From an uncultured delta proteobacterium (GTDB lineage Bacteria; Myxococcota; Myxococcia; Myxococcales; Myxococcaceae): DNA of 64,000 nt. The stretch is taken from contig CAVYSY010000054.1 in assembly GCA_963771175.1 (NCBI GenBank), forward strand, positions 32,001-96,000, given 5' to 3'. The translations under genes and the position numbers were made by a program. The stretch's first letter is position 1, and the number at the start of each line of letters is the position of its first letter. The notes below the pieces were generated by a model, which saw only the letters and a list, made by a program, of their open reading frames with translations, did no database searches and was not told where the DNA came from. Below, piece after piece: positions 9,639-34,417 of this stretch.

Positions 9639-10881
9639 GGACCCCGGACTTCCAACGGACGGGCAGGGACTCGAAGCCGCGGAAGAGCAGGCTGTGGCAC
9701 TTGAGCTGCGGGAGCTGCTCCTCGTCCAGGTGCAGGTCCGGCAGGCGCTCGAGCAGCACCGAGAAGGCGATTTCCAGCTCGCGCCGGGCCAGGCCGGCAC
9801 CCAGGCAGTGGTGGGGCCCGAAGGCGAAGCTCAGGTGCTTCTGGTGGTGGTCTCGGCTGATGTCGAAGCGCTCCGGCTGCGGGAAGACCTCCGGGTCGCG
9901 GTTGGCGGCCGCCATGCCCAGGAAGACCATGTCGCCCTGGCGGAGGGTGCGTCCCCGCAGCTCGAAGGTCTCCACCGCCACCCGGTGAATCCACGGGATG
10001 GGCGGGTCGTAGCGCAGCATCTCCTCCACGGCCGAGCGCACCAGCCCCGGGTCCTCCTGGAGCTTGCGCAGCTCTGAGGGGTGCGTCAGCAGCGCGTGGA
10101 GGCCATTGCTGAGCTGGTCCGTGGTGGTGAGGTGCCCGGCCGAGAGGATGAGCAGGGCGTTGGCGACAATCTCCTCCACGCTCGCGCCGCCCGCCTCCTG
10201 GCGCTGGACCATCTGGCTGAGCATGTCGTCGCCGGGCGCGCGCATCCGCTCCTCGACGAGCGCCGTCATGAAGTCGCGGGACTCCACCATGGCCTGGTTG
10301 GCGCGGCGGGCCAGCGCCACCATGTCCACCCCCATCGCGGGGCTGAAGAACTCGGCGATGGGATGGGTCCACGCCACGAAGCGCGTGCGCTCCTCGGCCG
10401 GAATGCCGAAGAGCTCGGCGATGACGAGCGGGGGGAGCTGGTAGGCGATGTCCGTCGCGAAGTCCATGCGGCCCTGGGAGAGGGCCCCGTCCACCAGCCG
10501 GTTCATCGTGCGGCGGATGGCCGGCAGCCACGCGTCGAGCGCCTGGGGCGTGAAGCCCGGGCTGCTGGCGCGGCGCAGGCGCAGGTGCTCCTTGCCATCC
10601 TTCATCACCATCTCGTTGCGGATGACGTCGAGGATGTCGCGGGCCGCGTCACCGACCTGGCTCCGCATCTGGAACTCGGCCAGCCGTGCCCGGTCGGCGC
10701 TCAGGCGCGAGTCGCGGAAGGCGTTCATCACGTCGTCATGACGGGTGAGGAACCAGGCATTCACCCCGCTCGACCAGTGCACCGGATCGCTCTTTCTCAG
10801 CTCCTCGTAAAGCGGGACCGGGTTGAGCATGTTCTCGGGCGCAACGGGGTTGAGGGGGTGCTTCCGGGCTGCGCTCGACAT
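9601..10881 (-). CDS. Cytochrome P450
   Basis: LILSAGHLTT I-helix, EEMLRYD ExxR, FAFGPHHCLGA heme ligand. Confidence 0.95.
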   Translation of the reverse strand: MSSAARKHPLNPVAPENMLNPVPLYEELRKSDPVHWSSGVNAWFLTRHDDVMNAFRDSRLSADRARLAEFQMRSQVGDAARDILDVIRNEMVMKDGKEHLRLRRASSPGFTPQALDAWLPAIRRTMNRLVDGALSQGRMDFATDIAYQLPPLVIAELFGIPAEERTRFVAWTHPIAEFFSPAMGVDMVALARRANQAMVESRDFMTALVEERMRAPGDDMLSQMVQRQEAGGASVEEIVANALLILSAGHLTTTDQLSNGLHALLTHPSELRKLQEDPGLVRSAVEEMLRYDPPIPWIHRVAVETFELRGRTLRQGDMVFLGMAAANRDPEVFPQPERFDISRDHHQKHLSFAFGPHHCLGAGLARRELEIAFSVLLERLPDLHLDEEQLPQLKCHSLLFRGFESLPVRWKSGVLTDPRRAGPSQP

Positions 10882-11188
10882 GGTTCTCTCTCCTCGGACG
10901 ACGCATCCTGATGTGCGGGTCTGACGCGATAATCAGCTCTGACCCTCTTGTCTGGAACTGGATTGCAGTTGCCGAGCCAAGCCATGCAAACCCACGGCTC
11001 ACGCAGCGGAGCTGGAAAGCTGTGGGCCGAGGCTCACTCCTTGGGTAGGCACAAGTGAGCCCCACGGTGAGAATCACCCTTTTTCGTCACCCGGCCGTCC
11101 CCGGGGATGGGGTGGGGTGCTACCCGGCGGGTCAGGTCTCACCCGTGCTGGCGAGCGGGGCCGCCGCGGCCATGGTAGAGGCCGGCGC

Positions 11189-11713
11189 ATGAGCACGGAG
11201 TCATTGGAACGGGTGGTCATCCGCGAGGCGAGGCCCGAGGACGACGCGGCCATCGGCGAGCTGCTGGTGGAGGCCTACCTCACCCAGTACGCGAAGAAGC
11301 TGCCGGAGGTGGTGTACACGGAGGAGCGCAAGCGGAGCCTGCGGGACACGGCGAGCAAGCGCGAGGTGGCGAAGGTGCTGGTGGCGGAGCTGGAGGGCCG
11401 GGTGGTGGGCTCGGTGGCGGTGTGGCCGCCGGGAGCGCCGGGCACGGAGGCGTGGCTGCCGAACGCGGCGGACCTGCGCCACCTGGCCACGGCGGTGGAG
11501 TTCCAGGGCAAGGGCCTGTCCAAGCCCCTGCTGGACGAGGCCGAGCGCATGGCGCGCGCCTGGGGCGTGTCGGCCGTCTGCCTGCACGTGCGCCGGGGCG
11601 CGGAGGGGGTGATGCGCATGTACCAGCGCCGCGGTTACGTGCGCGAGCCGGCGGGCGACCTGGAATTGCCCAGCGTCTCCCTCGTGGCCTTCGTGCTGCG
11701 CTTCCAGGGCTGA
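11189..11713 (+). CDS. GNAT family N-acetyltransferase
   Basis: IREARPED, LATAVEFQGKGL acetyl-CoA motif, MYQRRGY. Confidence 0.88.
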   Translation: MSTESLERVVIREARPEDDAAIGELLVEAYLTQYAKKLPEVVYTEERKRSLRDTASKREVAKVLVAELEGRVVGSVAVWPPGAPGTEAWLPNAADLRHLATAVEFQGKGLSKPLLDEAERMARAWGVSAVCLHVRRGAEGVMRMYQRRGYVREPAGDLELPSVSLVAFVLRFQG

Positions 11714-11778
11714 GCCCCCGCACGGGGCGCCTCCCCTCGCGTCCGTTCCTAGATTCATGGGCAACGGGGGACATCTCC

Positions 11779-13632
11779 ATGCGCGCGCCGCCCATCTCCG
11801 ACTATGCCCTGCTGTCCGACTGCAACTCGGCCGTGCTCGTGAGCCGTGCGGGCTCGGTGGACTGGTTCTGCTGCCCCCGCTTCGACTCGCCCGCCGTGTT
11901 CAGCCGGCTGCTGGACGCGGAGGCGGGGCACTGGGTGCTGCGCCCGGTGAGGGGCCGCTCGCACCGGCGCTACCTCGAACGCACGCTGGTGCTGGAGACG
12001 CTGCACCACACGCCCACGGGCATCGCGGTGCAGGTGGATGCGCTGGCGCTGGGGCGGGGCACGCGCGAGCACGGGCTGGGAGCGGACGTGCCCGGGGTGC
12101 TGCTGCGCCGGGTGGCGTGCGTCGAGGGCCAGGTGGAGTTCGAGACGGACTTCCGCCCCCGGCCCGAGTACGGGCTGGTGCACCCGATGCTGCGCGAGGT
12201 GGAGGGCGGAGTGTGGGCGCAGGGCGGCGCGTCCGTGCTGCTCCTGTCCTCGCCAATGCCCCTGGGATTCGGGGACTGTGAGGCCCACGGGCGCTTCACC
12301 TTGAAGGCGGGGGAGTCGGTGGGGTTCGCCCTGCAGCACCGCTCGTGGTGGCAGTCCCCGGTGCGGCCCTGGAGTCAGGAGGCCATCGACGTGGCGCTCG
12401 GGGACACGGTGGAGGCGTGGCGGAGCTGGTCGGACATGCACCAGCGCTATGAGGGCCCCTGGCGCGAGCTCGTCCACCACAGCGGCCGGGTGCTGCAGGC
12501 GCTCACCTTCTACCCGACGGGTGCCATCGTGGCCGCGCCCACCACGTCCCTGCCAGAGTCGGTGGGCGGCGAGCGCAACTGGGACTACCGCTACTCGTGG
12601 CTGCGTGACGCGAGCCTCACGCTGGAGGCCCTCTGGGTGGCGGCCTGCCCCGACGAGGCCTGGCGCTTCTTCAACTTCCTCTCCTCGACGGTGACGCAGC
12701 TGCAACGGGGGGAGGACGCGCGAATCATGTCTGGCATTGGCGGCGAGCACGACTTGAGCGAGCGCGTGCTGCCGCACCTGTCGGGCTGGAGGGGCAGTCG
12801 GCCCGTGCGGGTGGGGAACGCGGCGTGGACGCAGCGGCAGTTGGATGTCTATGGCGAGGTGCTCGCGGCGGCGCACCGGCTGAAGGAGCAGCTCGGAGGG
12901 CTCGACAGCGAGGGGCGGCGGTTCCTGGTGGCGCTGGCGGACTCGGCGGCGGACCGGTGGGGGGAGCCGGACCAGGGCATCTGGGAGATGCGGGACGCGC
13001 CCCAGCACCACCTCTACTCGAAGCTGATGTGCTGGGTGGCGGTGGACCGGGCGCTGGCGCTGAAGGACCTGCTCGTGGCGGATGCCGAGCGCGTGGCTCG
13101 CTGGGCGCGGGTGCGGCGTGAGCTCCGCTCGGCCATCCTGGAGCACGGGTGGAACGCTCGGGTGGGGGCCTTCACGCAGGCGTTCGACTCGGACGTGCTG
13201 GACGCGTCGGCGCTGATGCTGCCCATCGTCGGCTTCCTGCCGGCGAGGGACCCGCGGATGCTGGCCACGCTGGAGGCCATCTCCACGGACCTCACGGACG
13301 ACCGGGGGATGGTGTACCGCTACCGGAGCGCGGACGGGCTGTCAGGGGAGGAGGGTACCTTCTTCCTGTGCACCTTCTGGTTGGCGCACGCGTACGCGCT
13401 GGCGGGCGAGGTGGAGCGGGCGCGCGAGACGTTCACACGGACCGTGGAGTACGTGAACGACGTGGGGCTGCTGTCCGAGGAGGTGGAGCCGGAGAGCGGG
13501 GAGCTCCTGGGCAACTTCCCGCAGGCCTTCAGCCACATCGGCCTGGTGAACGCGGCGTGGGCCATCACCCAGGCGGAGGAGCGGAGGCGGAGCTCCGCGC
13601 CCGCGCACACCCCCGAGCCTCTCGGCGGCTGA
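11779..13632 (+). CDS. Glycoside hydrolase family 15 (trehalase/glucoamylase-like)
   Basis: [22 protein letters not shown]...[38 protein letters not shown]. Confidence 0.93.
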
Positions 13633-13730
13633 AACCTGCCGTCATGTCTTCAAAAGTGAATTGTCATTGGGCTGTAATCAAAGACAATTCGTAAAGGCAA
13701 GAATAAGCAATTCGGGCGGCTTGGGCGTGC

Positions 13731-13760
13731 TTGACAGGGAGTGTTTGGAGATTCTAGTTT
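13731..13760 (+). promoter_or_regulatory. Putative sigma70-type promoter for the methyltransferase-terpene synthase pair
   Basis: TTGACA-N18-TAGTTT in an AT-rich intergenic stretch about 210 nt upstream of the ATG at 13972. Confidence 0.45.
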
Positions 13761-13971
13761 TCAGGAGTTCCCGCGAGAGGAAGAGTTGCATGGTGGGTTG
13801 CAGCTCGCGGTAGGACTTCTGGAAATCACTCAAGCGGAACGCCACCGGCGGTGCCTCGGTGGGGCCAGCTTGTCTCTCGCGTGTTTCACGTGCTCCGCGA
13901 GGAGCACATCTGATGAGCCGGGACACCCACCCGGAGTTCAGTGCTTCAACGTAAGCCTCGGGAGACGTTGA

Positions 13972-14916
13972 ATGGCTGCTTTGATCTGGTCTCTGCCTGT
14001 CACCCAGCACCACACGCACGTCCGGCGCGTGCAGTCTTCTCCACCCGCGATTTCGAGGCTGGAGGCGACCGGTACCAACCGGGAGGTCGTTGCCAGCTAT
14101 TACGACTGGAAGACGGCCTCCATCCTCAAGAAGTACGGGCCGGGTCCGCGCGTCCATTTCCACCTCGGCTACTTCGAGGAGCCGCTGGACACCGCGGTGG
14201 AGGCGGACGAACTGCGCGAGCGCGTCCGCCGGGCGCAGGAGGAGGTGGTCGCGCGCGCGGCCCGCGCGTGGGATGCGCCGCGCGAGTTCGCGGGTCGACT
14301 CCTGGACGTCGGCTGCGGCCTGGGGGGCGGCGCCATCTACTGGGCGCAGCACTGCCCCACGGAGGTGACGGCGGTGACCATCGCGCGGGAGCACCTCCCG
14401 CTCATCTCCAACTTCGCCCGGCAGGCGGGGGTGGGGAAGCGCGTCCAGCCGGTGCTGTCCGACGCGTGCGAGGTCCAGTCGGAAGAGCCCTTCGACGCCG
14501 TGGTGGCGATGGAGAGCTCGTGCTACTTCCCGCGCGATCGCTGGTTCCAGCACCTGCGCGGCCTGGTGCGTCCCGGGGGCGTCGTGTGCATCGAGGACAC
14601 CTTCCTGGGCAGCCCGGACTGCCGCGAGCCCTTCGACCAGTACTGGCACACGCACATCGAAACGGTCGCCGAGTACGTGCGCTGTGCGCGCGCGGCGGGC
14701 TTCGAGCTCGAGAACAACGTCGACCTGACGGAGGGGACGACGGACTTCTGGCGCCATAGCATCGAGTGGAGCCGGCGCACCCTGGCGGCCGGGGACGTGG
14801 AGCCCGGCGAGGCCGAGCGCCTGAAGAAGTCCATCCTCTGGCACGGGTACTTCCACGAGGCGTGGTTGCGGCGGGGCATCGAGGTCTGGCTGTTGAAGTT
14901 CCGGCGCGTCAGCTAG
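13972..14916 (+). CDS. SAM-dependent C-methyltransferase, prenyl-diphosphate (FPP/GPP) methyltransferase-like
   Basis: YYDWKTASILKKYGPGPRVHFHLG, RAQE, LLDVGCGLGG, AMESSCY; adjacent to a terpene synthase. Confidence 0.85.
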   Translation: MAALIWSLPVTQHHTHVRRVQSSPPAISRLEATGTNREVVASYYDWKTASILKKYGPGPRVHFHLGYFEEPLDTAVEADELRERVRRAQEEVVARAARAWDAPREFAGRLLDVGCGLGGGAIYWAQHCPTEVTAVTIAREHLPLISNFARQAGVGKRVQPVLSDACEVQSEEPFDAVVAMESSCYFPRDRWFQHLRGLVRPGGVVCIEDTFLGSPDCREPFDQYWHTHIETVAEYVRCARAAGFELENNVDLTEGTTDFWRHSIEWSRRTLAAGDVEPGEAERLKKSILWHGYFHEAWLRRGIEVWLLKFRRVS

Positions 14917-14968
14917 CGTCAGGTAGTCGGTAGTCAGGTAGTGGGGGGGTTCCTTGGGTGCACGCGAG

Positions 14969-15844
14969 ATGAGCAGGGTCCGCAATCAACAGGTTCTCGA
15001 GGCCACGCTGGAATGGGGGCGCGAGCTCCCCGGCTTCGTCCCCGCGCATGCGCTCCATGGGGTGGTGCTCACCGAGGCGTTCGCGGGTGGTGTCCAGGGC
15101 GCGGAGGGCGAGTGGATCGCCGGGCTCGGCGAGGACGAGCCGGCCCTGCTGCTGGCGGCCATGGACCTGGCCTGCATCCTGTGGGTCGACGACTGGTTCG
15201 ACACGAGGGAGCACACCGGGCGGGAGGCGGAGCCGGGAGAGTCGCTCGTGAAGGTCCTCCTGGGCGGGTCGGCGACCACTCCCGAGGCGAGAGGTCTCGC
15301 GCTGCTGCGCGACAGGTTCCGTGCCGCGGCGCGAGGCCCGGATGACAATCGCCTGTGGGCCGAGACGCTCATCGACGTCGTGCGCGCCTCGCAGGAGGAC
15401 TGGCGCGTCTCGCGCGGGGAGCGCTCGCGCACCTGGGGCGAGTACCTGCGCAATGGTGAGCACAACATCGCCGCCGCCCACCTGGCCTTCACCTTGTCGC
15501 TCGCGTACGACCTCGGGCTCTCGTCGAGGGCCTCGGAGCCCCGGTTCCGCCGCGCGCTGAGCCACCTGTGCCTCGCCATGCGGCTGCGCAACGACCTGGC
15601 CAGCGCGGAGAAGGAGCGCCGGGAGGGCAACCTCGCCAACGGGCTCTTCATCATGGAGCGCTACCTGCCTCCCGCGCAGGCCTTCGCCTTCGTCGACGCG
15701 GAGCGGCTCGGCTACGAGCGGATGCTGGCCCGGGATGTCGAGGCACTCGGGCCCTACCACCCCTTCCCGCGAATCGCGCGGGTGATGATCGCCGCTGTGG
15801 AGCGCTTCTACCAGGTGCCCGATTCCCGCTACGCCGGCACCTGA
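14969..15844 (+). CDS. Class I terpene synthase
   Basis: Asp-rich WVDDWFD, EYLRNG, NSE-type RLRNDLASAEKE, C-terminal RY. Confidence 0.85.
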   Translation: MSRVRNQQVLEATLEWGRELPGFVPAHALHGVVLTEAFAGGVQGAEGEWIAGLGEDEPALLLAAMDLACILWVDDWFDTREHTGREAEPGESLVKVLLGGSATTPEARGLALLRDRFRAAARGPDDNRLWAETLIDVVRASQEDWRVSRGERSRTWGEYLRNGEHNIAAAHLAFTLSLAYDLGLSSRASEPRFRRALSHLCLAMRLRNDLASAEKERREGNLANGLFIMERYLPPAQAFAFVDAERLGYERMLARDVEALGPYHPFPRIARVMIAAVERFYQVPDSRYAGT

Positions 15845-16387: not shown

Positions 16388-17110
16388 ATGTCCCGCTTCC
16401 GTCTCTCGCAGAGCGATGCCGTCGAGTGGCTCCGCGCCCTGCCGTCCGCATCGGTGGACCTCGTCATCACCGACCCCGCCTACGAATCGCTCGAGAAGCA
16501 CCGCGCCATCGGCACCACGACGCGCCTCAAGCACAGCAAGGCGTCGAGCAACCACTGGTTTCAAATCTTCCCCAACGCGCGCTTCCCCGAGCTGTTCTCG
16601 GAAATCTGGCGGGTGCTGAAGCGGGACGCGCACTTCTACCTGTTCTGCGATCCCGAGACGATGTTCGTCGCGAAGCCGCTCGCGGAGGCGGCGGGCTTCC
16701 GGTTCTGGAAGCCCCTCGTCTGGGACAAGCAGCACATCGGCATGGGCTACCACTACCGCTCCCGCTACGAGTTCATCCTCTTCTTCGAGAAGGGCCGGCG
16801 GCGGTTGAGCGACCTGGGCGTGGCGGACGTGCTCCCGGTGCCACGCGTGTACCGGGGCTATCCGGCGGAGAAGCCCACGGGGCTGAGCGAGGTGCTCATC
16901 CGGCAGAGCAGCGAGCCCGGCGACGTGGTGGTGGACCCATTCCTGGGCTCGGGCTCGGTGGGCGTGGCGGCGGTGCGGCTCGGGCGGGACTTCCGGGGCA
17001 CCGACATCTGTGACGAGGCGCTGGCGGTCTCCGAGGCGCGGCTGCGCGCCGAGGGCGCGGTGCCGGAGGAGGCGGAGGAGACGCGAGTGCGCATGGCCCG
17101 GAGCGGGTGA
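16388..17110 (+). CDS. Site-specific DNA methyltransferase (N4-C/N6-A, beta class)
   Basis: VDLVITDPAY catalytic motif N-terminal, YPAEKP, VVDPFLGSGS SAM motif C-terminal. Confidence 0.92.
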   Translation: MSRFRLSQSDAVEWLRALPSASVDLVITDPAYESLEKHRAIGTTTRLKHSKASSNHWFQIFPNARFPELFSEIWRVLKRDAHFYLFCDPETMFVAKPLAEAAGFRFWKPLVWDKQHIGMGYHYRSRYEFILFFEKGRRRLSDLGVADVLPVPRVYRGYPAEKPTGLSEVLIRQSSEPGDVVVDPFLGSGSVGVAAVRLGRDFRGTDICDEALAVSEARLRAEGAVPEEAEETRVRMARSG

Positions 17111-17598
17111 GGGGGAACGAGAGCCGGACGCAGGAGGCGCGGATGACTGGACACGAATACGCGGAGCTGGTGGCCAGATACATCGTGAAGAACTTCGCCT
17201 CGCGCGGGGTGAAGGTGTACCGCGAGGTGAACGTCGGCAAGACGCTCACCGGGAAGGGGCGGCGCGTCGACGTCTTCGTGCTCGAGCCCACCACGGGCAC
17301 GGCGCTCGCCATCGAGTGCAAGTACCAGGGAAGCGTCGGCACCGTGGACGAGAAGATTCCCTTCGCCCTGCAGGACCTGGAGAGCATGCGGATTCCGGTG
17401 TGCGTCGCCTACGCCGGAGACGGCTTCTCCCAGGGCATCCTCCACATCCTCTCCGCGTCGCCCATCGCCACCTACTGCCTGCCTGGGGCGAAGACGCTCG
17501 CGCCCTCCCAGGAGACTCGCGAGCTGGACTGCCTCCTGGCCATGACCTTCAAGTGGTGGGACGTGCTCGTGCGCGGCAAGAAGCGTGTAGCGCTGTGA
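17107..17598 (+). CDS. PD-(D/E)XK nuclease superfamily protein (restriction-endonuclease-like); start 17107 or 17143
   Basis: GHEYAELV...RRVDVFV...LAIECKYQ...GTVDEKIP; overlaps or abuts the MTase stop. Confidence 0.8.
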   Translation: MRGNESRTQEARMTGHEYAELVARYIVKNFASRGVKVYREVNVGKTLTGKGRRVDVFVLEPTTGTALAIECKYQGSVGTVDEKIPFALQDLESMRIPVCVAYAGDGFSQGILHILSASPIATYCLPGAKTLAPSQETRELDCLLAMTFKWWDVLVRGKKRVAL

Positions 17599-17622
17599 AC
17601 CCGGGCGAGGCCTTACCGCATG

Positions 17623-18468
17623 TCACGGCTGGGAGAAGCCCCGCGCTGGCATCGCGGGAGAGCGGTGCAGCCAGTTGTCCTCGGGGTAGCGGGCGGTGCC
17701 GTCGATGAGGTGGACCGCGTAGGCGTGGCGGCTCTTGGGTGAGGTATTGGCGCCGCTCTTGTGGGGCAGCAACCCGTGGAGCACGACCAGGGAGCCCTTC
17801 TTCACCTCCAACGGCACCATGCCCTCCTCGGGCAGGGGCGTGGGGTCCAGCACCTGGAACGCCGTGCCGCCTCCCGGGGCGCGGACGAAGCGCTTCTTCA
17901 GGCCCAGCGTGTGCCCGCCGGGCAGCGCCCACAGGCACCCGTTCTCCAGCGTCGCGTCCTCCAGGGCGAACCAGAAGCCCATGCAGGTCGGCGGCTCCGT
18001 GTACAGGAACGTCGAGTCCTGGTGGCTGTTGACCTCGCCGCCGATGAAGGGCTGCTTGAAGATGTACATCGACTGGATCAGCAGCGGCTGCTTCATGCCC
18101 AGCTCCGCGGCCAGGGCCGCCAGCTCGGGCGTGCGGGAGAACCGGTCGAAGACGGGGTCCAGGTCGTGCAGCGCGTGGCCGATCTTGTTGATCGACAGCG
18201 CCTTGTCCTGGCGCAGCGAGCCGTCCGGCTTGAAGGCGTTCTCCTCGAAGAAGAACCGGAGCTGATCCCCCGAGGACAGGAAGTACTCGTCCGAGGTCCG
18301 GGTCTGCTCGTGCGTGGTGAAGATGGAGACCGTCTCCGGCTGGAAGTCGGCCACCAGCTCCTCGGCCCGGGCCTTCAACGCATCGCAGGAGGCCGCCGGG
18401 ACGAACCCGGGCAGTACGAGGAACCCCTGTCGCGAGAACTCTTCGGCACGATTCATGTCCGCTCCCAT
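17623..18468 (-). CDS. Phytanoyl-CoA dioxygenase family (PHYHD1-like 2OG/Fe oxygenase)
   Basis: QSMYIFKQP, HQD, WFALEDATLENGCLW, LLPHKSGANTS.KSRHAY. Confidence 0.92.
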   Translation of the reverse strand: MGADMNRAEEFSRQGFLVLPGFVPAASCDALKARAEELVADFQPETVSIFTTHEQTRTSDEYFLSSGDQLRFFFEENAFKPDGSLRQDKALSINKIGHALHDLDPVFDRFSRTPELAALAAELGMKQPLLIQSMYIFKQPFIGGEVNSHQDSTFLYTEPPTCMGFWFALEDATLENGCLWALPGGHTLGLKKRFVRAPGGGTAFQVLDPTPLPEEGMVPLEVKKGSLVVLHGLLPHKSGANTSPKSRHAYAVHLIDGTARYPEDNWLHRSPAMPARGFSQP

Positions 18469-18517
18469 GCGCGGCTGCGACCGGCAGCCTATTCGAGCGG
18501 GCGGGGACTGCGAAGAG

Positions 18518-18588
18518 CGCTCCTGCTGGGAATCGAACCCAGTTCACACGGTAGACGGCCGTGCTGCGATCCAATCGCATCCAGGAGC
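18518..18588 (-). tRNA. Atypical tRNA-Asp(GTC)-like gene
   Basis: Cloverleaf GCTCCTG/CAGGAGC, D arm TGCG-ATTGGAT-CGCA, anticodon arm CACGG-CCGTCTA-CCGTG, T arm CTGGG-TTCGATT-CCCAG, discriminator G; non-canonical G8, C33, T37; no encoded CCA. Confidence 0.75.
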
Positions 18589-18600
18589 TTGTGCTGCGAG

Positions 18601-18673
18601 TACCCCGTACGGGAGTCGAACCCGTCTTTCCGCGGTGAGAGTGCGGTGTCCTTCGCCGATAGACGAACGGGGC
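18601..18673 (-). tRNA. tRNA-Glu(CTC)
   Basis: GCCCCGT TC GTCTATCGGCGAAGGAC A CCGCA CTCTCAC CGCGG AAAG ACGGG TTCGACT CCCGT ACGGGGT A; Glu-type D arm; A31-C39 mismatch; no encoded CCA. Confidence 0.9.
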
Positions 18674-18690
18674 AGGAAGTCGGGACCCGG

Positions 18691-18731
18691 AAAAGCAAGA
18701 GGCCGGGTCCCTTCTTGGGAGCCCGGCCTCT
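18691..18731 (-). terminator. Intrinsic terminator (attenuator) just upstream of the tRNA genes
   Basis: Minus strand AGAGGCCGGGCTCCC-AAGAA-GGGACCCGGCCTCT followed by TGCTTTT, 17 nt before the tRNA-Glu 5' end. Confidence 0.8.
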
Positions 18732-18770
18732 GAGTCCCGTGCCTCGTCATGGGACGAGGACGCGGAAGGT

Positions 18771-18920
18771 TCAGAATCCGGGCGGTTGGCCGCCAGTCAG
18801 CTCGAGGCCGAGCAGGAGGTCCAGAGCGGTATCCAGGCCGGTACGCGAGAGCGCGTCGATGCCAGTATCAGTGTCGTTCAGGGACTCGAGGTTCATCGGG
18901 CTCTGCTTCGTCACCGTCAT
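18771..18920 (-). CDS. Putative leader peptide (49 aa)
   Basis: GAAAGGAG RBS 8 nt before ATG; MTVTKQSPMNLESLNDTDTGIDALSRTGLDTALDLLLGLELTGGQPPGF*; 3' end complementary to the terminator 5' arm; not in the supplied ORF track. Confidence 0.7.
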   Translation of the reverse strand: MTVTKQSPMNLESLNDTDTGIDALSRTGLDTALDLLLGLELTGGQPPGF

Positions 18921-18944
18921 GGTCACCGCTCCTTTCATCGAGAA

Positions 18945-18973
18945 AAGACGTGGCTGGAATCCATTCCTGACAA
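18945..18973 (-). promoter_or_regulatory. Putative promoter of the leader/tRNA transcript with a palindromic spacer
   Basis: Minus strand TTGTCA-N17-CGTCTT; spacer contains the inverted repeat GGAAT-GG-ATTCC. Confidence 0.45.
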
Positions 18974-19027
18974 CGCACCGCGCGGCTCGACAAGTGCCCG
19001 GCGCGTGAGCGCCAAGGATGCGTGAGG

Positions 19028-19645
19028 CTAACCGAGGTCTTTCTGTCGGACCCCGAGCCCCGCGGCGATGCCCGGCACGGCAAGGCGTCGGAAGAGCTCG
19101 TCCACCTCCGCGGGGGGTCGTGGGTTGGGGCTATCCAGCCACCAGATGAGGAGGCCGAGGAACGCGCCCACCACGAAGTGGACCACGCCCTCGAAGGCGC
19201 CACCCGGTGCCCTGCTGTCCGGTGGGGCGAGCGAGGCGAGATCGTCCCGTGTGAGCTGGGTGACCAGCCGGCGCATCTTGTTCTGCAGCGCCGCACCGCT
19301 CTCCCGGCCCACCATGGCCTGGTAGAGGTGGCGATGCGAGTGGGCATGCTCGAAGAGGGCCAGTCCGAAGTCGAGCCGGCCTGAGTCCGTCCCCTTGCGT
19401 CCTCCGCGCGCCGCTCGCCGCTGCGCGACAATGGCGCTCTTGAGCTCGTCGAAGCCGCTTACCAGCAGCTCCTCCTTGTCGGAGAAGTGGGCGTAGAAGG
19501 TGGACCGCCCCACGTTGGCCCGGTCGGTGATGTCCTGCACCGTCACCGCCTCGTAGCCCTTCTCCAGGATGAGCTCCACGAGCGCATGCCTCAGGAGCTG
19601 CCGCGTCCGTTGGACTCGTCGATCCTCGCGCTTCTCCTCCGCCAT
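19028..19645 (-). CDS. TetR/AcrR family transcriptional regulator
   Basis: DRRVQRTRQLL...GYEAVTVQDITDRANVGRSTFYAHF. Confidence 0.93.
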   Translation of the reverse strand: MAEEKREDRRVQRTRQLLRHALVELILEKGYEAVTVQDITDRANVGRSTFYAHFSDKEELLVSGFDELKSAIVAQRRAARGGRKGTDSGRLDFGLALFEHAHSHRHLYQAMVGRESGAALQNKMRRLVTQLTRDDLASLAPPDSRAPGGAFEGVVHFVVGAFLGLLIWWLDSPNPRPPAEVDELFRRLAVPGIAAGLGVRQKDLG

Positions 19646-19761
19646 CGAGCACCTCGCAATCCGGAACAAATCCCCCTGCGTGTCCCGAAACACACAGGCT
19701 CCGCGGGGCCGTTCATTGTGAAGACCGGCCGCGGCTCGCATTCTGAACAAAGAAGCCATTA

Positions 19762-19778
19762 CTGGACAAGGTGTCCAG
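19762..19778. promoter_or_regulatory. Candidate TetR operator
   Basis: Perfect inverted repeat CTGGACA-AGG-TGTCCAG between divergent tetR and ABC genes. Confidence 0.55.
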
Positions 19779-19797
19779 CATTCAGGGAGAGCCGCGA

Positions 19798-20574
19798 ATG
19801 TCGAACGAGTCCTCATCACCCGCCGCCCCGCTCGGCGGGGAGCCCCTCATCCGGGTCCGGGGCGTGGTCAAGACGTACCGCACCCCAGCGGGCCCCTTCC
19901 CCGCGCTGCGAGGGGTGAGCTTCGAGGTGAGCCAGGGCGAGATGGTGGCGGTGGTGGGCAAGTCCGGCAGCGGCAAGTCGACGCTCCTCCACCTGATGAG
20001 CGGAATCGACCACCCCTCGGCGGGAGAGGTTCACGTGGCCGGGACGCCCGTGCACTCCCTGTCCGAGGGGCGCCTGGCCCGCTGGCGCGGGCGCAATGTG
20101 GGCGTCGTGTTCCAGTTCTTCCAACTGCTGCCCACCCTGACGGTGGCCGAGAACGTCATGCTGCCGATGGACTTCTGTTCCACGTTCCCGGCGAGGGAGC
20201 GCCGCGCCCGGGCACTCGCCCTGCTCGAGCAGGTGGGCATCGCGGAGCAGGCGGACAAGCTGCCCTCGGCGCTCTCGGGCGGGCAGCAGCAGCGGGCGGC
20301 GATCGCTCGGGCGCTGGCCAACGACCCGCCGCTCCTCGTGGCCGACGAGCCCACCGGCAACCTGGACTCCAGCACCACCGAGGCCGTGTTGCAGCTCTTC
20401 ACCGAGCTCTCTCGCCGCGGCAAGACCGTGGTCATCGTCACCCACGAGCGCGAGGTCGCTCGCGTCTTCGACCGGGTGCTGACGCTGGCGGATGGGGTGC
20501 TCGTCTCGGAAGCCCCTGGACAGCGCCGGGCCCGGGCCGGGGTGCTCGCCGAGGTGGCCCATGGCCAGGCCTAG
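19798..20574 (+). CDS. ABC transporter ATP-binding protein (LolD/MacB-like)
   Basis: [30 protein letters not shown]. Confidence 0.95.
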
Positions 20575-22975
20575 GTGGCGAAAGCTGTGGCGCGACCTGT
20601 GGATGGAGCGTGGGCGCGCGGCGCTGATGGTGGTGGCGGTCGCGGTGAGCCTGCTGGGCATCGGGGCGGTGCTGGGGGCCTACGCCATCCTCTCGCGCGA
20701 GATGGCGGGCAACTATCTGGGCACCCGTCCCGCCTCGGCCACGCTCGAGCTGGATGCCGTGGACCGCGCGCTGGTGGAGGAGGTGCGCCAGCGTCCGGGA
20801 GTGCTCGAGGCCGAGGCGCGCAAGACGCTCCTGGCCCGGGTGAAGGTGGGGGCGGATTGGATGCCCCTCCTGCTGTTCGTTATCGACGACCTCGACTTCC
20901 CGAGACTCAACCGCTTCCGGCTCGAAGACGGCGCCTGGCCCCCGCCGGAGGGCACCCTGCTCATCGAGCGCACCGCCCAGCGCGTGCTCCAGGCCGGACC
21001 GGGCCAGTCCATTCGCGTGAAGGCGCCTGCTGGACAGGCTCGGGAGATGACCATCCGCGGCCTGGTGCACGACCCGAGCCTCTCGCCCGCCTGGCAGGAG
21101 CGAGAGGGCTACGGTTACATCACCCGGGAGACCCTCGCGTGGCTCGGTGAGGCGCCGGTGCTGGATGAGCTCCGGGTGGAGCTCGCGGCGGCCAGGGAGC
21201 CCCTGGAGGCCCCCGCGGTCGATGCTGCTGCTCGCGAGCTGGGCGCCTGGCTCCAGCAGCGCGGGTATGGCGTGCATCATATCGAGGTGCCGCCCCCGCG
21301 CAGGCACCCCCATCAGACCCAGATGATGGCCGTCCTCTTCATGATGCTCGCCTTCAGTGGGATGGCCCTCGTCCTGAGCGCCATCCTGGTGGCCACGACG
21401 CTCGCCGGCATCCTGGCCCGACAGGTGCGCGAGATAGGCGTGATGAAGGCCGTGGGCGCGGGCACCGGGCAGATCGCCGGTCTGTATGCGGTGATGACGC
21501 TCCTGCTCGGGAGCGGCTCGACCTTGCTGGCGGTGCCTCCGAGCATCTTCGCCGCACGGGCCTTGTCCCACATGGTCGCGCGGATGCTGAACCTCGAGCT
21601 CGTCAGTGAGGCGATTCCCGGCTGGGTCCTCGCGCTGCAGGTGGCCGCTGGCGTGCTGGTCCCCCTGGTGGTTGCGGCCATCCCCCTCCTCCGGGGCAGC
21701 CGCGTGAGCGTGCGGCAGGCCCTTGATGACCACGGCATCACTCAGGAGACGCCGGGCGCGCGCGAGCCCTCCGGGGTGCTCCGCGTCCTGGGCGGGCTCG
21801 ACCGGATGCTCCTGCTGGCGCTTCGCAACACCTCGAGGCGGCGCGGGCGCCTCGTGCTGACCGTAGGGCTCCTGGCGGCCGGAGGCGGGATGTTCATGAT
21901 GGCCCTCAACGTGATGGAGGGATGGGAGCGCTATGTCGGGGAGGTGCCCCGGACGCGCCACTACGACGTGGAACTGCGCTTCGGGCAGCCCCAGCCGACA
22001 GCGCGCATCGTGAGCCTGCTTCAAGGCGTCCAGGGAGTCCGGTCCGTGGAGGCCTGGGGCTACCTTCCGACGGCCTTCTCGAAGCCGGCTCTCCTCGACG
22101 TGAGCCGCGTGTACCCGGACGGCGGCCACGGCGGCTTCATCCTCCGCGCTCCGCCGGCGGAGACCTCCCTCGTTCGGTTCCCGCTCAGGTCCGGGCGCTG
22201 GCTCGCGACGGGTGACGTGGATGCGGTGGTGCTCAACCACATGGCGCTCGTGCAGGCGCCTCACGTCCAGGTGGGTGACAGGGTCTCCTTGTCCGTGGAG
22301 GGCAAGCCGACGGTGTGGCAGGTGGTCGGCATCGTGGAGGAGGTCGGGTCGCCCGCGACGGCCTACGTGACGGACGAGGCGCTGGCCCGCGTCGCCGGCA
22401 CGGTGGGGCGCACTCAGTCGGTGCGGCTCGCCACGACGACGGCGGACCCAGGTGTTCGGGAGGAGGTCCTCCGCGCGGTCGAGCGCACGCTGGAGCAGGC
22501 CAACGTGGGCGTCGAAGTGGCCATTCCGCTGTCCGAGTTGCGCACCGCCGTGGGGGACCACGTCCTCGTCCTCGTTCGGATGCTCATCGCGATGGCCGTG
22601 CTCATGGCGACGGTCGGTGCCATCGGGCTCACGTCGGCCATGGGCATGAGCGTGCTGGAGCGGACACGGGAGCTGGGGGTGATGCAGGCCATTGGCGCGA
22701 CACCGGGCGTGGTGCTGCGGCTCATCGTCACCGAGGGCGTCTTCGTCGGCGCGTTGAGTTGGGGGGCGGCCCTGCTCCTCTCGGTGCCACTGACAGCGCT
22801 CGTCGGCAGCATCGTGGGCACGCTCGCCTTCAGGCTTCCGCTTCCCCTCGTGCTGTCTCCGTGGGCGATGCTGCTGTGGCTCGCCCTGGTGCTGGTGGGG
22901 TCCATGGGGGCCACGGCGCTGCCCGCCTGGCGTGCCTCGAGGCTGACCGTTCGCGAGGCCCTCGCGCAGGTCTGA
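20561..22975 (+). CDS. ABC transporter permease (FtsX/MacB-like, duplicated)
   Basis: Two FtsX halves ([22 protein letters not shown]) with large periplasmic loops. Confidence 0.92.
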
Positions 22976-25888: not shown

Positions 25889-26046
25889 GGCGGTGTGAAT
25901 CAGCCGCTCAGGGCGGGAATTCGCACGAATTCGAGCGCGTGTGAGCGGCTTCACAGCCAGGGTTTTCTCCGGGGGTGTATCAGCGTCTCGAAAATCGAGA
26001 GGCCCACTTGGAGTTCGAAGTGGGCGCACCGAGGGGGGATTCCTGA

Positions 26047-27223
26047 ATGATGGGACGTGAGTGGCAGGCATGGCGACAGGCGTTGGTGCTTGTCCTGTTC
26101 GTAACCGCTGCCTGTGGAGGGAGCGGTCCTGTCTGGAACGTGACGCTCGAAGGTGAGGCGTCCGCGCCTGTGCTGTCTCCGCGAGGCAGCCTCGTCGTCG
26201 TCACCTCCGCTCCAGCGCTGTACTCCATCGATGAGAGCGGCAAGACCGAGTGGCGTGTATCCCTCGACGGGGTGTCCCCGGGCTCGGAGAGCACGGATGG
26301 GCCAGGGGGCCCGGTCGTCTTCGAGAATGGCGACATCGTGGTGCCAGCGGGCCCCGCAGCGCTCGCGCGCTATTCGGCGGATGGGGAGTTGCTGTGGCAG
26401 ATGTCGCTCCCGGTCAACATCAACGCGGAGCTGGCGGCGTTGCCGGATGGCTCGGTGGCCGTGCCTGGGACTTCGGGCACACTCCTCGTCGTTCGCGCCG
26501 ATGGCTCCACGGGCATGGAATTCCGCGAGACGACCATCACCTCCCTGCTCTCTTGGACTGCGGCCCCTGTCGTGACGGCGGACGGTGCGCTGGTGGGCAT
26601 TCTGGGTGATGGCTTCATCATTCGCATCGAGAAGGACGGCACGCGTGGGTGGCTGCACGAGACTCAGAGCTCGACTTTGGCTCTTGCACTCGGGGCGGGT
26701 GGCAGCGTGCTGTACCTGTCACGCAGCGGCTCGGAGGATGTGGCCGAGATGAGGGGTCTCCTTTCACTGGGCGCGGATGGGCAGGTGCGCTGGCACGAGC
26801 TGCTCTCCGAAGGGGCTTTGTACGAGCCAGCGGTGGAGGCGGATGGCACCGTCCATGTCGTGTCCGGAAGCTATGGCCGTGGGCCTCTGCTTCTGCGCTA
26901 CAAGGAGGGCCGTGCCCGCGAGGAGGTCGTATTGCCTGAGCCAGCGGTATGCGGGCCCCTGCTCGCTTCAGGAGGCGAGCGCATCGTCCGGCTCAAGGGG
27001 GACCGACTCCGGGTCTACGATGCTCGAGGAAAGCTCCTCCAAGAAGAGGCGCTTCCTAGCTGGAGGACCGCGCCCGTGCTCGCTCCGGGTGGCGCACTGT
27101 ATGCCACCTCAGGCAACACCCTTCACCGGATCGACCTGGAAGTCGAGGGCCTGGCGGATGCGCTCTGGGCTCGGCCACGCGCTGACAACCGAGCCTCCGG
27201 AGCTCCTTCCTCCGTCACCCTGA
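26047..27223 (+). CDS. PQQ-like beta-propeller lipoprotein (end approximate; as assembled it reads through to 28722)
   Basis: Lipobox VTAAC, repeated xxDGxxxW blades (ESGKTEW, ADGELLW, KDGTRGW, ADGQVRW), terminal W...RADNRASG motif. Confidence 0.7.
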
Positions 27224-27319
27224 AATTTCCTGACACGCGCTCGCGAGAGAGCGCGTCTGTTCAACCGGTCGCTCCGGACGGGGCCGGTATTGCCAAGAAT
27301 CACTTGAAAGGAGAATGTC

Positions 27320-27631
27320 GTGAACCGAGTCATCAGCCTGGGGCTGATGCTGCTGGGAGTGGCTTGTCAGAAGACACCCGAAAGCAGCACCACGCCCACC
27401 GAGACGACCACTTCCCCTGGTTTCTTCCAGAAGGCCCTCAGTCCCTCTTGTCAGGCTGTCTACTCCTGCTGCGAGGAGTTCTCCGCGCGTGTCGCGAAGG
27501 GCGGCAAGGCGCCTTTCAACTGCACGGCGCTCGCTACGCAAGGGCCCGAGGGCTGCGAGCAGTCGCTGCAGACCTTCCGTGCGTTGTCACCCAAGGTGAA
27601 GGCCCAGCTTCCTTCCGCCTGCACCCAGTGA
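27320..27631 (+). CDS. Small Cys-rich lipoprotein
   Basis: AAGGAG RBS before GTG, lipobox LLGVAC, Thr/Ser linker, CxxxxxCC...C...C...C pattern. Confidence 0.75.
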   Translation: MNRVISLGLMLLGVACQKTPESSTTPTETTTSPGFFQKALSPSCQAVYSCCEEFSARVAKGGKAPFNCTALATQGPEGCEQSLQTFRALSPKVKAQLPSACTQ

Positions 27632-27642
27632 GAGTTCCCGTC

Positions 27643-28722
27643 ATGAGATATCCCTTCGTCATTACCGTTTCGCTGTTATTCGCGGCCACTGCTGCCGCTC
27701 AATCTCCTTATCCCAACCCAGACCGCTGTATGCCCATTTCGATTGGGGACAGATTCAACAAGGTCGTGAGCGGTGTGCTCAGCGCGGGGGAGAACAACGA
27801 GAACTACCAGATGCCGGTGGCGGGTGCTCAGATCCACATCGACTCGCGAGATGTGCGCTCTGGGGGCCTGCCCGAGGGTGCCTTCATCAAGGCTCCGGAC
27901 TCGTGGCCGCTGGAGTACACGGACGAATTCAATCGCCGGCCCATCCCGCCAGCCATGTCGCCGCTGCTTGGCGATGACATGCTCGGTATCACCTATCGGA
28001 TCAATCACCTCGCGGCAGCGAGCTTCGAGCTGAACTTCAACTGCAACCCGGATGCTTTCGGTGGCAAGTTGAAGGATGGGGCGTTGAAGCTGCAGGTCGA
28101 GTTTGCCCCCAGCAAGGATGAGGCGGACGACGAGCTGCAGGTGCAGCTCGTCGTCCAGACCTTCGCTGGGAAGATCGCCCTGGACCTGGTCGACGTCGAC
28201 CTGGACGAGACGTTCAAGGTCCACGTGGCCGCCGTGCCCACGGTGAATCCCAATGGCAACGACGTGGACCTCGACTTCTATTACGACTTCAACGAGCTCT
28301 TCAAACACGCCATCATCGGCGAGCTCGTCGATGAAATCGTCACCGTGGCCGCCTCGGCGTCTCTGCTCATGGGACAGACCGCCGCGCTGACCTTCTGTGT
28401 GGGTGACCCCGTGTGCGTCGCCGCGACCTCCACCGCGACCGGCATCATCGTCACCGCGGGGGTGCTGGCGTACGAGCAGGAGATGCGGCAGGCCTCGGCG
28501 GACATGATGGCCTCGGCGCTCGATGAGTTCACCCAGCCCTACCGCCGCAACAATGGGATGCTGAAGAAAGTCCGGGAAGAGTTCCGAAGCCAGGTGCTCG
28601 CCCACAAGGTCTACGAGGGAATGAACCTCCTGGAGGCCGTGGACGCCCTGCCCGTACCGGAGTTCGACATCGAGAAGTTCGAGCCCGTGGACATTCCCGC
28701 CACCTGCAAGGAGGCGCCGTGA
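27643..28722 (+). CDS. Secreted hypothetical protein with internal hydrophobic hairpin
   Basis: Signal peptide MRYPFVITVSLLFAATAAA; acidic beta-rich core; hydrophobic stretch IVTVAASASLL...GIIVTAGVLAY; stop overlaps next GTG. Confidence 0.7.
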   Translation: MRYPFVITVSLLFAATAAAQSPYPNPDRCMPISIGDRFNKVVSGVLSAGENNENYQMPVAGAQIHIDSRDVRSGGLPEGAFIKAPDSWPLEYTDEFNRRPIPPAMSPLLGDDMLGITYRINHLAAASFELNFNCNPDAFGGKLKDGALKLQVEFAPSKDEADDELQVQLVVQTFAGKIALDLVDVDLDETFKVHVAAVPTVNPNGNDVDLDFYYDFNELFKHAIIGELVDEIVTVAASASLLMGQTAALTFCVGDPVCVAATSTATGIIVTAGVLAYEQEMRQASADMMASALDEFTQPYRRNNGMLKKVREEFRSQVLAHKVYEGMNLLEAVDALPVPEFDIEKFEPVDIPATCKEAP

Positions 28723-31161: not shown

Positions 31162-31181
31162 CCTGGATTGAAGGAGCGGAA

Positions 31182-31640: not shown

Positions 31641-31674
31641 GAGGAGCTCTTCCTCTTCCAATTGCTAGGTTTCA

Positions 31675-31713
31675 CCCTGGGAGCGCCGTCTCGTCGGAGG
31701 GGCGCTCCCGGGG
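31675..31713. terminator. GC-rich hairpin after the secreted-protein operon
   Basis: CCCTGGGAGCGCC...GGCGCTCCCGGGG. Confidence 0.45.
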
Positions 31714-31806
31714 CCTGTGTCCAGCATGCGACCACTTCCGTGAGTGCGCTTCGGTGCGCCGACCCGCTAGCATCGGTGCCCGTACTCGACGCAGGGGGAC
31801 GCACCG

Positions 31807-33439
<1,633 letters not shown>

Positions 33440-33467
33440 AGCAACTGGAGCAGGGGGACGAGGTGGC

Positions 33468-34382: not shown

Positions 34383-34417
34383 GGCTCTTCCTCTCCCTCG
34401 GCTCGGTGTGGCGTATC

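Follow-up and report, generated by a model that had tools for sequence, protein, structure and literature searches.

In this study, we describe a locus in a 64,000 nucleotide (nt) stretch of DNA from an uncultured delta proteobacterium (contig CAVYSY010000054.1, positions 32,001 to 96,000; this whole stretch is referred to as the window), the minus strand of which carries a 49-codon leader open reading frame (ORF), a terminator-like hairpin and two tRNA or tRNA-like genes. It is probable that this unit represents a transcription attenuator in which a ribosome translating the leader peptide would govern the expression of an accessory tRNA array. This assessment was based on the computed elements of the locus, their conservation, two alternative folds of the transcript and the codon enrichment of the leader, from which we infer leader translation, the type of promoter, the sites of ribosome stalling and the decoding role of the tRNAs.

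According to the proposed mechanism, transcription would start at a conserved, probably extracytoplasmic function (ECF)-type promoter, following which a ribosome would load at the Shine-Dalgarno sequence and translate the 49-codon leader. A ribosome positioned at the last codons or the UGA stop while the next ~80 nt are being synthesised would cover region 2 (13 nt of the ORF, plus ~10 nt beyond), whereupon the terminator would form and transcription would stop at the U-tract, which in the window lies 17 nt before the first tRNA gene. Were the ribosome late or held, most plausibly on the sequence LDLLLGLEL(T)GG, region 2 would be left free to zip with the 5′ arm of the terminator (region 3; 18733-18721) into an antiterminator that is predicted to be more stable than the terminator itself. 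The polymerase would then read into the tRNA genes, and a fifth segment of the transcript (region 5) would capture the 3′ arm of the terminator. In such a scheme the array would be off under fast translation and on under slow translation.

The locus had been highlighted in an original prediction, generated from the letters of the window alone, which proposed a leader peptide and an antiterminator/terminator pair upstream of a small tRNA operon. Re-reading of positions 19300-18200 recovered all of the sequence features described in that prediction, each at its proposed minus-strand position (Table 1). The pairing it had put forward between the ORF end and the terminator (GCCCGGATTCTGA/TCAGAGGCCGGGC) was likewise recovered, comprising 11 Watson-Crick pairs, one G-U pair and one A/G mismatch over 13 nt. 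The ORF was said to be missing from the list of open reading frames; this holds for the 49-codon form, although a 55 amino acid (aa) version of the same frame (18771-18938) is in fact listed, the upstream ATG of which is not kept in relatives.

Table 1. Elements of the leader-tRNA locus, given in the numbering of the 64,000-nt window, with all attenuator elements on the minus strand.
Element	Position	Strand	Remark or basis
TTGTCA	18973-18968	-	promoter-like -35 half
CGTCTT	18950-18945	-	promoter-like -10 half, 17 nt after TTGTCA
Shine-Dalgarno sequence GAAAGGAG	18936-18929	-	8 nt 5′ of ATG
Leader ORF MTVTKQSPMNLESLNDTDTGIDALSRTGLDTALDLLLGLELTGGQPPGF	18920-18771	-	49 codons plus TGA (18773-18771)
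Candidate regulatory codon run LDLLLGLEL, codons 33-41	18824-18798	-	count of cognate codons
Region 1:2 hairpin GGCGG-CCAA-CCGCC	18794-18781	-	minimum free energy (MFE) fold; overlaps the start of region 2
Region 2, GCCCGGATTCTGA	18783-18771	-	final 13 nt of the ORF, stop codon included; provides the antiterminator 5′ strand
Antiterminator, imperfect ~63-nt hairpin spanning the ORF end through the terminator 5′ arm	18783-18721	-	folding
Small hairpin CCTCGTC-CCAT-GACGAGG	18759-18742	-	7 bp; apex of the antiterminator
Terminator hairpin AGAGGCCGGGCTCCC-AAGAA-GGGACCCGGCCTCT	18731-18698	-	14-bp GC-rich stem with one bulged C
U-tract TGCTTTT	18697-18691	-	directly 3′ of the terminator hairpin
Region 5, CCGGGTCCC	18690-18682	-	exact complement of the terminator 3′ arm GGGACCCGG (18711-18703)
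tRNA-Glu(CTC) gene	18673-18600	-	ARAGORN and the Rfam tRNA model
tRNA-Asp(GTC)-like gene	18588-18517	-	ARAGORN only

The attenuator is conserved as a unit. A pattern scan, in which one genome per species was considered, identified 12 further genome loci (designated by L numbers) in Archangium, Vitiosangium, Cystobacter fuscus and Corallococcus interemptor, two of which contain two copies each; together with the window, 15 DNA copies were thus available, 14 from Archangiaceae and one from Corallococcus (L012). The same order of elements is shared by these copies, i.e. promoter motif, Shine-Dalgarno sequence, ORF, hairpin with U-tract (14/15) and one or more tRNA or tRNA-like genes, the latter being located within approximately 100-130 nt 3′ of the leader in all 15. 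As the loci were picked for carrying the leader, this 15/15 link means that such leaders precede tRNAs and not that all such tRNAs have leaders. Alignment of the copies from the promoter to the first tRNA (alignment A2) revealed that the ORF end, both hairpins and the sequence CCGGGTCC past the U-tract are nearly invariant. The proposed arrangement of leader, antiterminator and terminator upstream of tRNAs is kept in 14 of the 15 copies, and it is this retention of the entire arrangement that speaks against a chance origin. In the second L002 copy (L002:4995-5320) a deletion removed the small hairpin, the terminator and the Glu gene, leaving an intact leader ORF whose 3′ flank is joined to the spacer before the Asp-like gene.

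The genomic setting of the unit differs between loci. A FecCD permease gene is situated upstream in 9/12 loci, while in 7/12 (L001, L002, L003, L007, L008, L009 and L010; e.g. L008:5715-5934) the last tRNA is directly followed by a cobalamin riboswitch (86-95 bits) that has a promoter-like TTGACA of its own. This setting appears to be where the unit was originally inserted. LanC-like, GH97, ADH and HNH genes are among the other flanking genes, and the unit stays intact in these differing contexts. Given that the flanking genes vary, the limits of the conserved unit are the promoter on one side and the array on the other. The original prediction had entertained the possibility that a 2-oxoglutarate (2OG) dioxygenase gene belongs to the read-through transcript. 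This gene, of the PhyH family (Pfam E=9.6e-50), begins 49 nt past the last tRNA, yet the PhyH and TetR neighbours are specific to the window and absent from the 12 loci; not being conserved neighbours, they are not part of the unit.

A core motif, TGTCAGGA-N14-CGTC, is invariant in 15/15 copies of alignment A2. It occurs once in the window (at least one occurrence being found in 7/100 shuffles), and in the 12 loci it lies ahead of all 14 leader copies and nowhere else. The signature of ECF41 promoters is TGTCACA-n16(±1)-CGTC, in which CGTC represents the usual ECF -10 motif (PMC3426412); the corresponding TGTCAGG-n15-CGTC of the present unit matches five of the seven -35 positions and all four -10 positions. 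The sequence would therefore suggest a promoter of the ECF-sigma type, i.e. one used by a stress sigma factor. The Shine-Dalgarno sequence GAAAGGAGCGGT is also invariant (15/15). A separate promoter for the tRNAs was considered and rejected, as a simple promoter scan of window positions 17000-20500 returned no sigma-70-like site and there is no space for one between the hairpin and the tRNA genes.

Several features of the leader ORF are indicative of translation. Its length varies from 41 to 52 codons across the DNA copies, all indels within it are multiples of three (3, 6, 9 and 27 nt) whereas those past the stop are 1-3 nt, and a TGA stop, located inside region 2, is present in 15/15 copies. 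A protein search identified 31 close homologues of 41-74 aa, all of which are labelled 'hypothetical'; those named derive from Archangium and Cystobacter fuscus, with one labelled Longimicrobiaceae. Such annotation, in many genomes, as a hypothetical protein would be expected if the ORF encoded a free-standing small protein followed by an ordinary terminator, to which the tRNA array is merely adjacent or into which transcription leaks constitutively, and a hairpin with a U-tract does resemble a normal terminator. This explanation is nevertheless highly improbable. The peptide has no Pfam match, the tRNA-array link holds in 15/15 copies with no room for a promoter, the unit is intact across contexts, and a conserved alternative fold overlaps the stop codon. 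Furthermore, over 28 pairs the mean proportion of synonymous differences (pS) is 0.138 in the leader (30-codon block) versus 0.277 in the adjacent FecCD gene, while the mean proportion of non-synonymous differences (pN) is not lower (0.098 versus 0.086); classical dN/dS ratios, which range from 0.28 to 1.65, were less informative on coding than this comparison. The unusual conservation of silent sites, which is not accompanied by that of replacement sites, is more in keeping with a leader acting in cis than with an ordinary small protein. A ribosomally synthesised and post-translationally modified peptide (RiPP) precursor was also considered on account of a GG-like motif before QPPGF, the nearby PhyH gene and a LanC-like gene near L007. 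This candidate was rejected since the peptide travels with tRNAs and not with modifying enzymes, the PhyH and LanC neighbours each being found in one context only.

The 127-nt stretch from the ORF end to the first tRNA possesses a fold z-score of -4.79, none of 200 shuffles being as stable. Two alternative structures are predicted for this region. The terminator, a GC stem with a U-tract, is present in 14/15 copies with 96.9% of cells paired and two pairs changed on both sides. The antiterminator forms in 14/14 copies when the transcript is folded only up to region 3, and is the more stable of the two in all 14 (-28.8 to -48.5 kcal/mol versus -21.7 to -30.4 kcal/mol for the terminator). In this structure the sequence intervening between regions 2 and 3 zips up too, and the small hairpin, which the original prediction had treated as a separate element, instead forms the apex of the ~63-nt antiterminator. 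The region 2/3 helix has 88% of cells paired over 14 copies. For the complete sets of pairs the proportion of paired cells is 93.4% in the terminator state (36-56% in slid controls) and 91.4% in the antiterminator state (30-46% in slid controls), and in the terminator-state set three pairs show changes on both sides, a number reached by 9/500 shuffles. Covariation is sparse because the copies are close relatives. One informative case is a U-A to C-G double change in the antiterminator of L003 and L011; as the terminator 3′ arm of L003 carries the matching change, all three strands have moved together in that locus. The hairpin formed by regions 1 and 2 is weak (0 to -14 kcal/mol; 87% of cells paired in A2) and may, judging from these folds, act as a pause or anti-antiterminator hairpin.

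RNAalifold, when run without a supplied structure, returned as consensus the antiterminator together with a second hairpin (-54.4 kcal/mol, 34 pairs, four of which changed on both sides). In this second hairpin the terminator 3′ arm GGGACCCGG pairs with the downstream CCGGGTCC of region 5, 9/9 pairs being formed in the window, and the same pairing is part of the MFE structure of the read-through state. Masking experiments in silico agreed with the original prediction in that a masked ORF end with 10 nt beyond, mimicking a ribosome at the stop codon, yielded the terminator in 14/14 copies, while a free ORF end gave the antiterminator. When the mask extended only up to an A site eight codons before the stop, the antiterminator was the MFE structure in 9/14 copies.

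In the full-length fold the terminator stem is lengthened to ~22 bp and the U-tract is bulged out. Together with the conservation of region 5, which lies past the termination point, this might point to a processing or stability hairpin, for example a site for a double-strand-specific RNase, in a constitutive leader-tRNA precursor devoid of any regulated terminator. We consider such a role scarcely credible, given that the succession of GC stem and U-tract is conserved, that the stop codon forms part of a fold incompatible with the terminator, and that processing alone would need neither an ORF nor a Shine-Dalgarno sequence nor a maintained reading frame. Known RNA families, the T-box among them, were examined as candidates and rejected: Rfam scans gave no T-box match in the window or the 12 loci and no leader family at the locus, and sub-threshold microRNA (miRNA) and mascRNA matches were at chance level.

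If the leader acts as a gauge of translation, its codon content becomes relevant. Cognate codons were defined as those read by the family-wide array anticodons (GAG, GAY, GGY, CUY and CUG), and 26 genes of the window (10,701 codons) served as background. Codons 33-41 of the window leader (CTG GAC CTC CTG CTC GGC CTC GAG CTG) are cognate without exception (9/9), and as GGC GGC follows after one Thr codon, 11/12 of codons 33-44 are cognate. Overall, the leader contains 22 cognate codons among 49 compared to 26.4% in the background (binomial P=0.004), the longest background run is six, and none of 10,493 nine-codon background windows reaches eight. The run is mostly kept in the long-form Archangiaceae leaders, which have 18-23 cognate codons of 47-51. 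In addition, rare codons ending in A or T account for 16-24% of codons in the 14 Archangiaceae leaders, the background value being 9.5%. Because the run uses codons read by the anticodons of the array, a feedback loop that tops up the decoding of GAG, GAY, GGY, CUY and CUG may be envisaged; that stalling is specific to these codons, such that the leader would feed back on tRNA supply, is plausible, with something short of an even chance. The footprint of a ribosome reaches ~12 nt beyond the first A-site nucleotide, and a ribosome held anywhere on the run would thus leave region 2 free, covering region 1 from codon 39 onwards.

The arrays of the 14 Archangiaceae copies contain 2-7 genes each. 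All of these genes belong to five types, namely Glu(CTC), Asp(GTC)-like, Gly(GCC), Leu(GAG) and Leu(CAG), which vary between arrays in order and content. Intra-array spacers are 7-40 nt, except for one of 93 nt that contains a decayed Asp-like copy, and owing to these short spacers an array can only be one transcript. The identity of the tRNA-Glu(CTC) gene, as originally assigned, was corroborated by ARAGORN and by the Rfam model (47.1 bits against a gathering score of 29); its loop CUCUCAC has U33 and a purine at position 37 as in canonical elongator tRNAs, and it possesses a Glu-type D arm, a G1-U72 pair and an A31/C39 mismatch. Ten copies of the gene were compared, and its position 37 is A, U or C among relatives. 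The assignment of the second gene as tRNA-Asp-like is borne out by ARAGORN and by its cloverleaf fold, although the Rfam tRNA model does not list it at E≤10. This gene scored below the gathering score in 8/8 locus copies while 44/44 other tRNAs called by ARAGORN were above it, and with its loop CCGUCUA (C33 and U37) and G8 it departs from the canonical elongator pattern. A compensatory A-U to G-C change was observed in its anticodon stem across nine copies. C33 is a shared feature, being present in the Asp-like gene (9/9 copies), the Gly gene (12/12) and Leu(GAG) (10/10).

Bacterial tRNA-Leu is a class II tRNA of ~85 nt with a long variable arm. The array Leu(GAG) and Leu(CAG) genes (e.g. L001:5511-5688), none of which is in the window, are 76 nt long with a 5-nt variable loop in 23/23 copies, and thus fall outside this class. 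No array gene encodes CCA. The Gly gene has G1-C72, C2-G71, G3-C70, U73, C35 and C36, which we take to be the identity set of glycyl-tRNA synthetase (GlyRS). Since stems are kept by compensatory changes and loops are conserved per type, these genes are maintained RNAs and not decaying pseudogenes. The two genes of the window represent a cut-down version of the larger array. The window genome must have other sources of Gly(GCC) and Leu tRNAs and of a canonical tRNA-Asp. The window Asp-like gene is followed by TCTTCGCAGTCC (18500-18517, minus strand), the trailer of the Gly gene in other arrays (cf. L002:5316-5330), which suggests that similar tRNA 3′ ends recombined and that the array of the window lost genes in this way.

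Certain observations weigh against the attenuator as proposed, and the first group of these concerns its structure. Taking the window by itself, the complementarity of regions 2 and 3 stands out only slightly, as 613 of 18,280 sampled 20-mers pair with the arm at least equally well (p~0.03), and a simple terminator scan did not flag the hairpin, the stem of which is bulged and the T run interrupted. One of the 13 pairs of the antiterminator helix is changed on both sides, which is not significant when compared to shuffles (295/500 for pairs, 68/500 for cells), and with the stalled-ribosome mask the terminator persists in 5/14 MFE folds, region 2 then being paired with region 5. The second group concerns the leader. 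Two leaders, those of L007 (12/41 cognate codons) and Corallococcus L012 (8/52), lack the run altogether, and where it exists it does not follow the content of its own array, the same run preceding Glu and Asp-like genes only in the window and two Leu genes only in L011. The conserved N-terminus (TKQSPMN...GIDALSR) and the PPGL end found across genera are not explained by simple attenuation. Finally, as judged from their sequences, the atypical array tRNAs (Asp-like, C33-bearing and short-arm Leu) may not decode.

The absence of the run from two leaders and its indifference to array content would be accommodated if the same attenuator served as a general gauge of translation speed, responsive to ribosome-targeting antibiotics or global stress and not to particular tRNAs, with the codon run a by-product of peptide composition and of the codons that predominate in a GC-rich genome. 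With the antiterminator as default fold, read-through would follow from ribosomal delay of whatever kind, and the five codon classes already constitute more than a quarter of the background; the middle segment of the wider leader family is also very variable, and a tRNA operon of Anabaena is reported to respond to general translational stress (PMC8421152). As an account of the unit this is possible but doubtful. A nine-codon cognate run is unseen in the background windows, it is placed exactly where, by footprint geometry, a stalled ribosome would free region 2, and the test did not presuppose that the run would match the family-wide anticodon set.

With regard to the conserved ends of the leader, word-seeded and profile searches revealed a wider family of proteins (104 by the former and 19 representatives among 1.84 billion cluster representatives by the latter), all unnamed or labelled 'hypothetical protein', for which the named genera are Archangium, Cystobacter, Hyalangium, Corallococcus, Myxococcus and Pyxidicoccus. 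Members share an N-terminal M.TVT..SPMN(P/L)..LND..GIDAL and a C-terminal PPGL that flank a highly variable middle. Longer database versions start with ..RLFSLKGAVTM, which corresponds to translated -10/Shine-Dalgarno DNA, and therefore this DNA is conserved in the wider family too. One record (P0104) is filed under 'Comamonas sp. JC664', an unexpected genus, and two differing members (P0045 and P0112) are encoded nine locus tags apart on one Corallococcus terminator contig.

Arrest peptides that act within the ribosomal tunnel include TnaC, ErmCL and SecM, and PPG is a pause motif that depends on EF-P. The leader could by analogy act through its conserved N-terminal segment and its PPG-stop end in the tunnel, respond to a small molecule or antibiotic, and in this way decide on termination. 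The conservation of TVT..SPMN(P/L)..LND..GIDAL and PPGL on either side of a variable middle in Archangium, Hyalangium, Corallococcus, Myxococcus and Pyxidicoccus, the invariant UGA, and the retention of a conserved Ser through a switch from AGC to TCC in Corallococcus L012 are consistent with this notion. We regard it as improbable in view of a pN/pS of ~0.7 in the Archangium group, where synonymous sites are constrained and much of the conservation would thus be at nucleotide level, of the coincidence of the PPG codons with the base-paired CCGCCCGGA of region 2, and of the replacement of Pro-Pro in some members (LQPGL in L010; RWPGL, LLPGT and LSPGT in homologues). Nonetheless, neither codon-specific feedback nor a general translation sensor would explain the conserved N-terminus and PPG-stop end, so that the sequences leave room for an arrest-peptide component within the leader-peptide attenuator.

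The altered anticodon loops of the array tRNAs permit a further reading of what the attenuator controls. It has been proposed that phage tRNAs escape anticodon nucleases by virtue of altered anticodon loops (PMC10264068), and myxobacteria are reported to exchange at least one tRNase toxin, SitA3 (PMC5562445). Taken together, these reports lend plausibility to a reserve set of tRNAs in the Archangium/Myxococcus lineage that would withstand such nucleases through its altered features (C33, a variable position 37 and short-arm Leu tRNAs). A leader written in its own codons would keep this set silent until the housekeeping tRNAs for GAG, GAY, GGY, CUY and CUG are cut or depleted, whereupon ribosomes stalled in the leader would allow the antiterminator to form and the set to be expressed; such depletion could be due to kin-exchanged tRNase toxins, phage-defence nucleases or toxins of the cell itself. 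We deem this rather unlikely. If true, it would constitute a self-correcting tRNA-supply circuit, in which the variable middle of the leader is a swappable codon 'address' matched to the tRNA or tRNA-like genes downstream.

The Corallococcus interemptor locus (L012:4936-5340) displays a divergent leader (…TAPSTCRWRGFASLRLALPGS) with the same promoter, Shine-Dalgarno sequence, antiterminator and terminator. Its downstream RNA is a single 68-nt tRNA-like element that has an 11-nt anticodon loop with CCA, with an HNH endonuclease gene next to it. The L012 leader contains one Trp codon, a single case that may be a coincidence.

A phage or plasmid origin of the unit was considered and rejected, as the matches in 19 phage and six plasmid records were single-tRNA similarities of 77-83%, none of which spans the leader. 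The phage and plasmid collections yielded no instance of the leader or of the complete unit, and tblastn searches of these with two leader peptides gave no credible match. Short-arm Leu tRNAs do occur in phage arrays: Sinorhizobium phage Phosso encodes a 78-nt tRNA-Leu(gag) without a long arm that is 81% identical to the array Leu gene, in a cluster arranged as Glu(ttc)-Leu(gag)-Glu(ttc)-Phe(gaa) (L013; 422828-423188).

The original prediction had further suggested a search of other Myxococcota for a conserved leader with covarying structures ahead of tRNA, rtcB or TROVE genes. Conserved leaders with tRNA arrays were indeed encountered there, whereas covariation was scarce. A link to Y-RNA, RtcB or TROVE was accordingly dropped, there being no such domains in the 35 window ORFs scanned and no Y-RNA match in the window (Rfam).

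Elsewhere in the window, the TetR gene (minus strand) directly precedes the leader promoter, from which no obvious terminator separates its stop codon, and is divergent from genes for an ABC ATPase and an 827-aa FtsX-type (MacB-like) permease (19028-22975). On the plus strand, convergent with the PhyH gene, positions 16388-17598 encode an N6_N4_Mtase DNA methyltransferase and, overlapping with it, a PD-(D/E)XK nuclease, which are likely to form a restriction-modification pair. Genes for a cytochrome P450, a GH15/trehalase-like protein, an S-adenosylmethionine (SAM) methyltransferase and a family-2 terpene synthase are grouped at 9601-15844 and may represent a small terpenoid cluster. The region from ~25900 to 45000 has few long ORFs with the high third-position GC content typical of the remaining window, and may be foreign or rich in non-coding DNA.

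The enterobacterial trp, his, leu, thr, ilv and pheA leaders are the textbook examples of leader-peptide attenuators, whose principle the present unit would share: a short ORF with a Shine-Dalgarno sequence, a candidate cluster of codons related to the product, overlapping 1:2, 2:3 and 3:4 hairpins and an intrinsic terminator, with a ribosome at the leader stop masking region 2 to permit termination and an upstream stall allowing the antiterminator. The unit differs from the trp/his type in that its cargo is tRNAs and not enzymes, its codon run combines codons for four amino acids that are read by five anticodons, region 4 has an additional pairing partner in the fifth segment, the N-terminus of the leader is conserved across genera and the promoter resembles that of ECF sigma factors. 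Moreover, the 1:2 hairpin is much less stable than the antiterminator, so that absence of translation should lead to read-through and not to super-attenuation. The pheL leader is treated in PMC3082878.

Among antibiotic-sensing leader attenuators are vmlR and bmrCD. The upstream ORFs (uORFs) of whiB7/wblC and of topAI are reported to sense ribosome-targeting antibiotics (PMC7157823, PMC12121999). As in all of these, a short upstream ORF of the present unit would report stalling and switch off premature termination. The known systems control resistance or regulator genes, in some cases through Rho, and none of them is reported to act on tRNA genes, whereas the present leader precedes a tRNA array. 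No sequence similarity to antibiotic-sensing leaders was detected with Pfam or the Rfam leader families.

A functional parallel is provided by the 'cryptic' trn operon (L-array) of Anabaena sp. PCC 7120, the single inducible tRNA operon to have been studied well, which is silent normally, is induced by translational stress and aids survival, its control being ascribed to direct repeats over the -10 box and start site that presumably represent a repressor site; the available text on this operon mentions no attenuation, leader or terminator (PMC8421152). Both systems would be supernumerary tRNA operons inducible on impaired translation, the L-array being thought to have spread horizontally. They differ in that the Anabaena operon, in another phylum, comprises 23 tRNAs under promoter control compared to the 2-7 genes described here. 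A tRNA array unit has been defined as at least 20 tRNA genes at a density of at least two per kb (PMC4758250), a size that the arrays of this study do not attain. Phage and plasmid tRNA arrays resemble the present ones in containing clustered, in our case presumably extra, tRNAs with deviant anticodon loops (PMC10264068, PMC4758250, PMC5966550), while the present unit is chromosomal, much shorter and situated behind a putative translated attenuator.

The T-box binds uncharged tRNA directly and needs no ORF; it would have in common with the present unit that a choice between terminator and antiterminator reports on tRNA status, and is set apart from it by the leader ORF. Genes for tRNAs are usually growth-rate-controlled housekeeping genes, and no leader-peptide or attenuator control of such genes was found in the literature, subscription-only papers being outside this search. 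On the basis of the sequences, the mechanism would thus be a known one and the tRNA cargo new. Members of the leader family occur widely among social, predatory, antibiotic-producing bacteria that serve as a model group, and the attenuator may account for the retention of short arrays of unusual tRNAs in their genomes. If the proposal is correct, it would represent an inversion of classic attenuation, in which the speed of the ribosome on given codons controls the supply of decoders and not that of amino acids.

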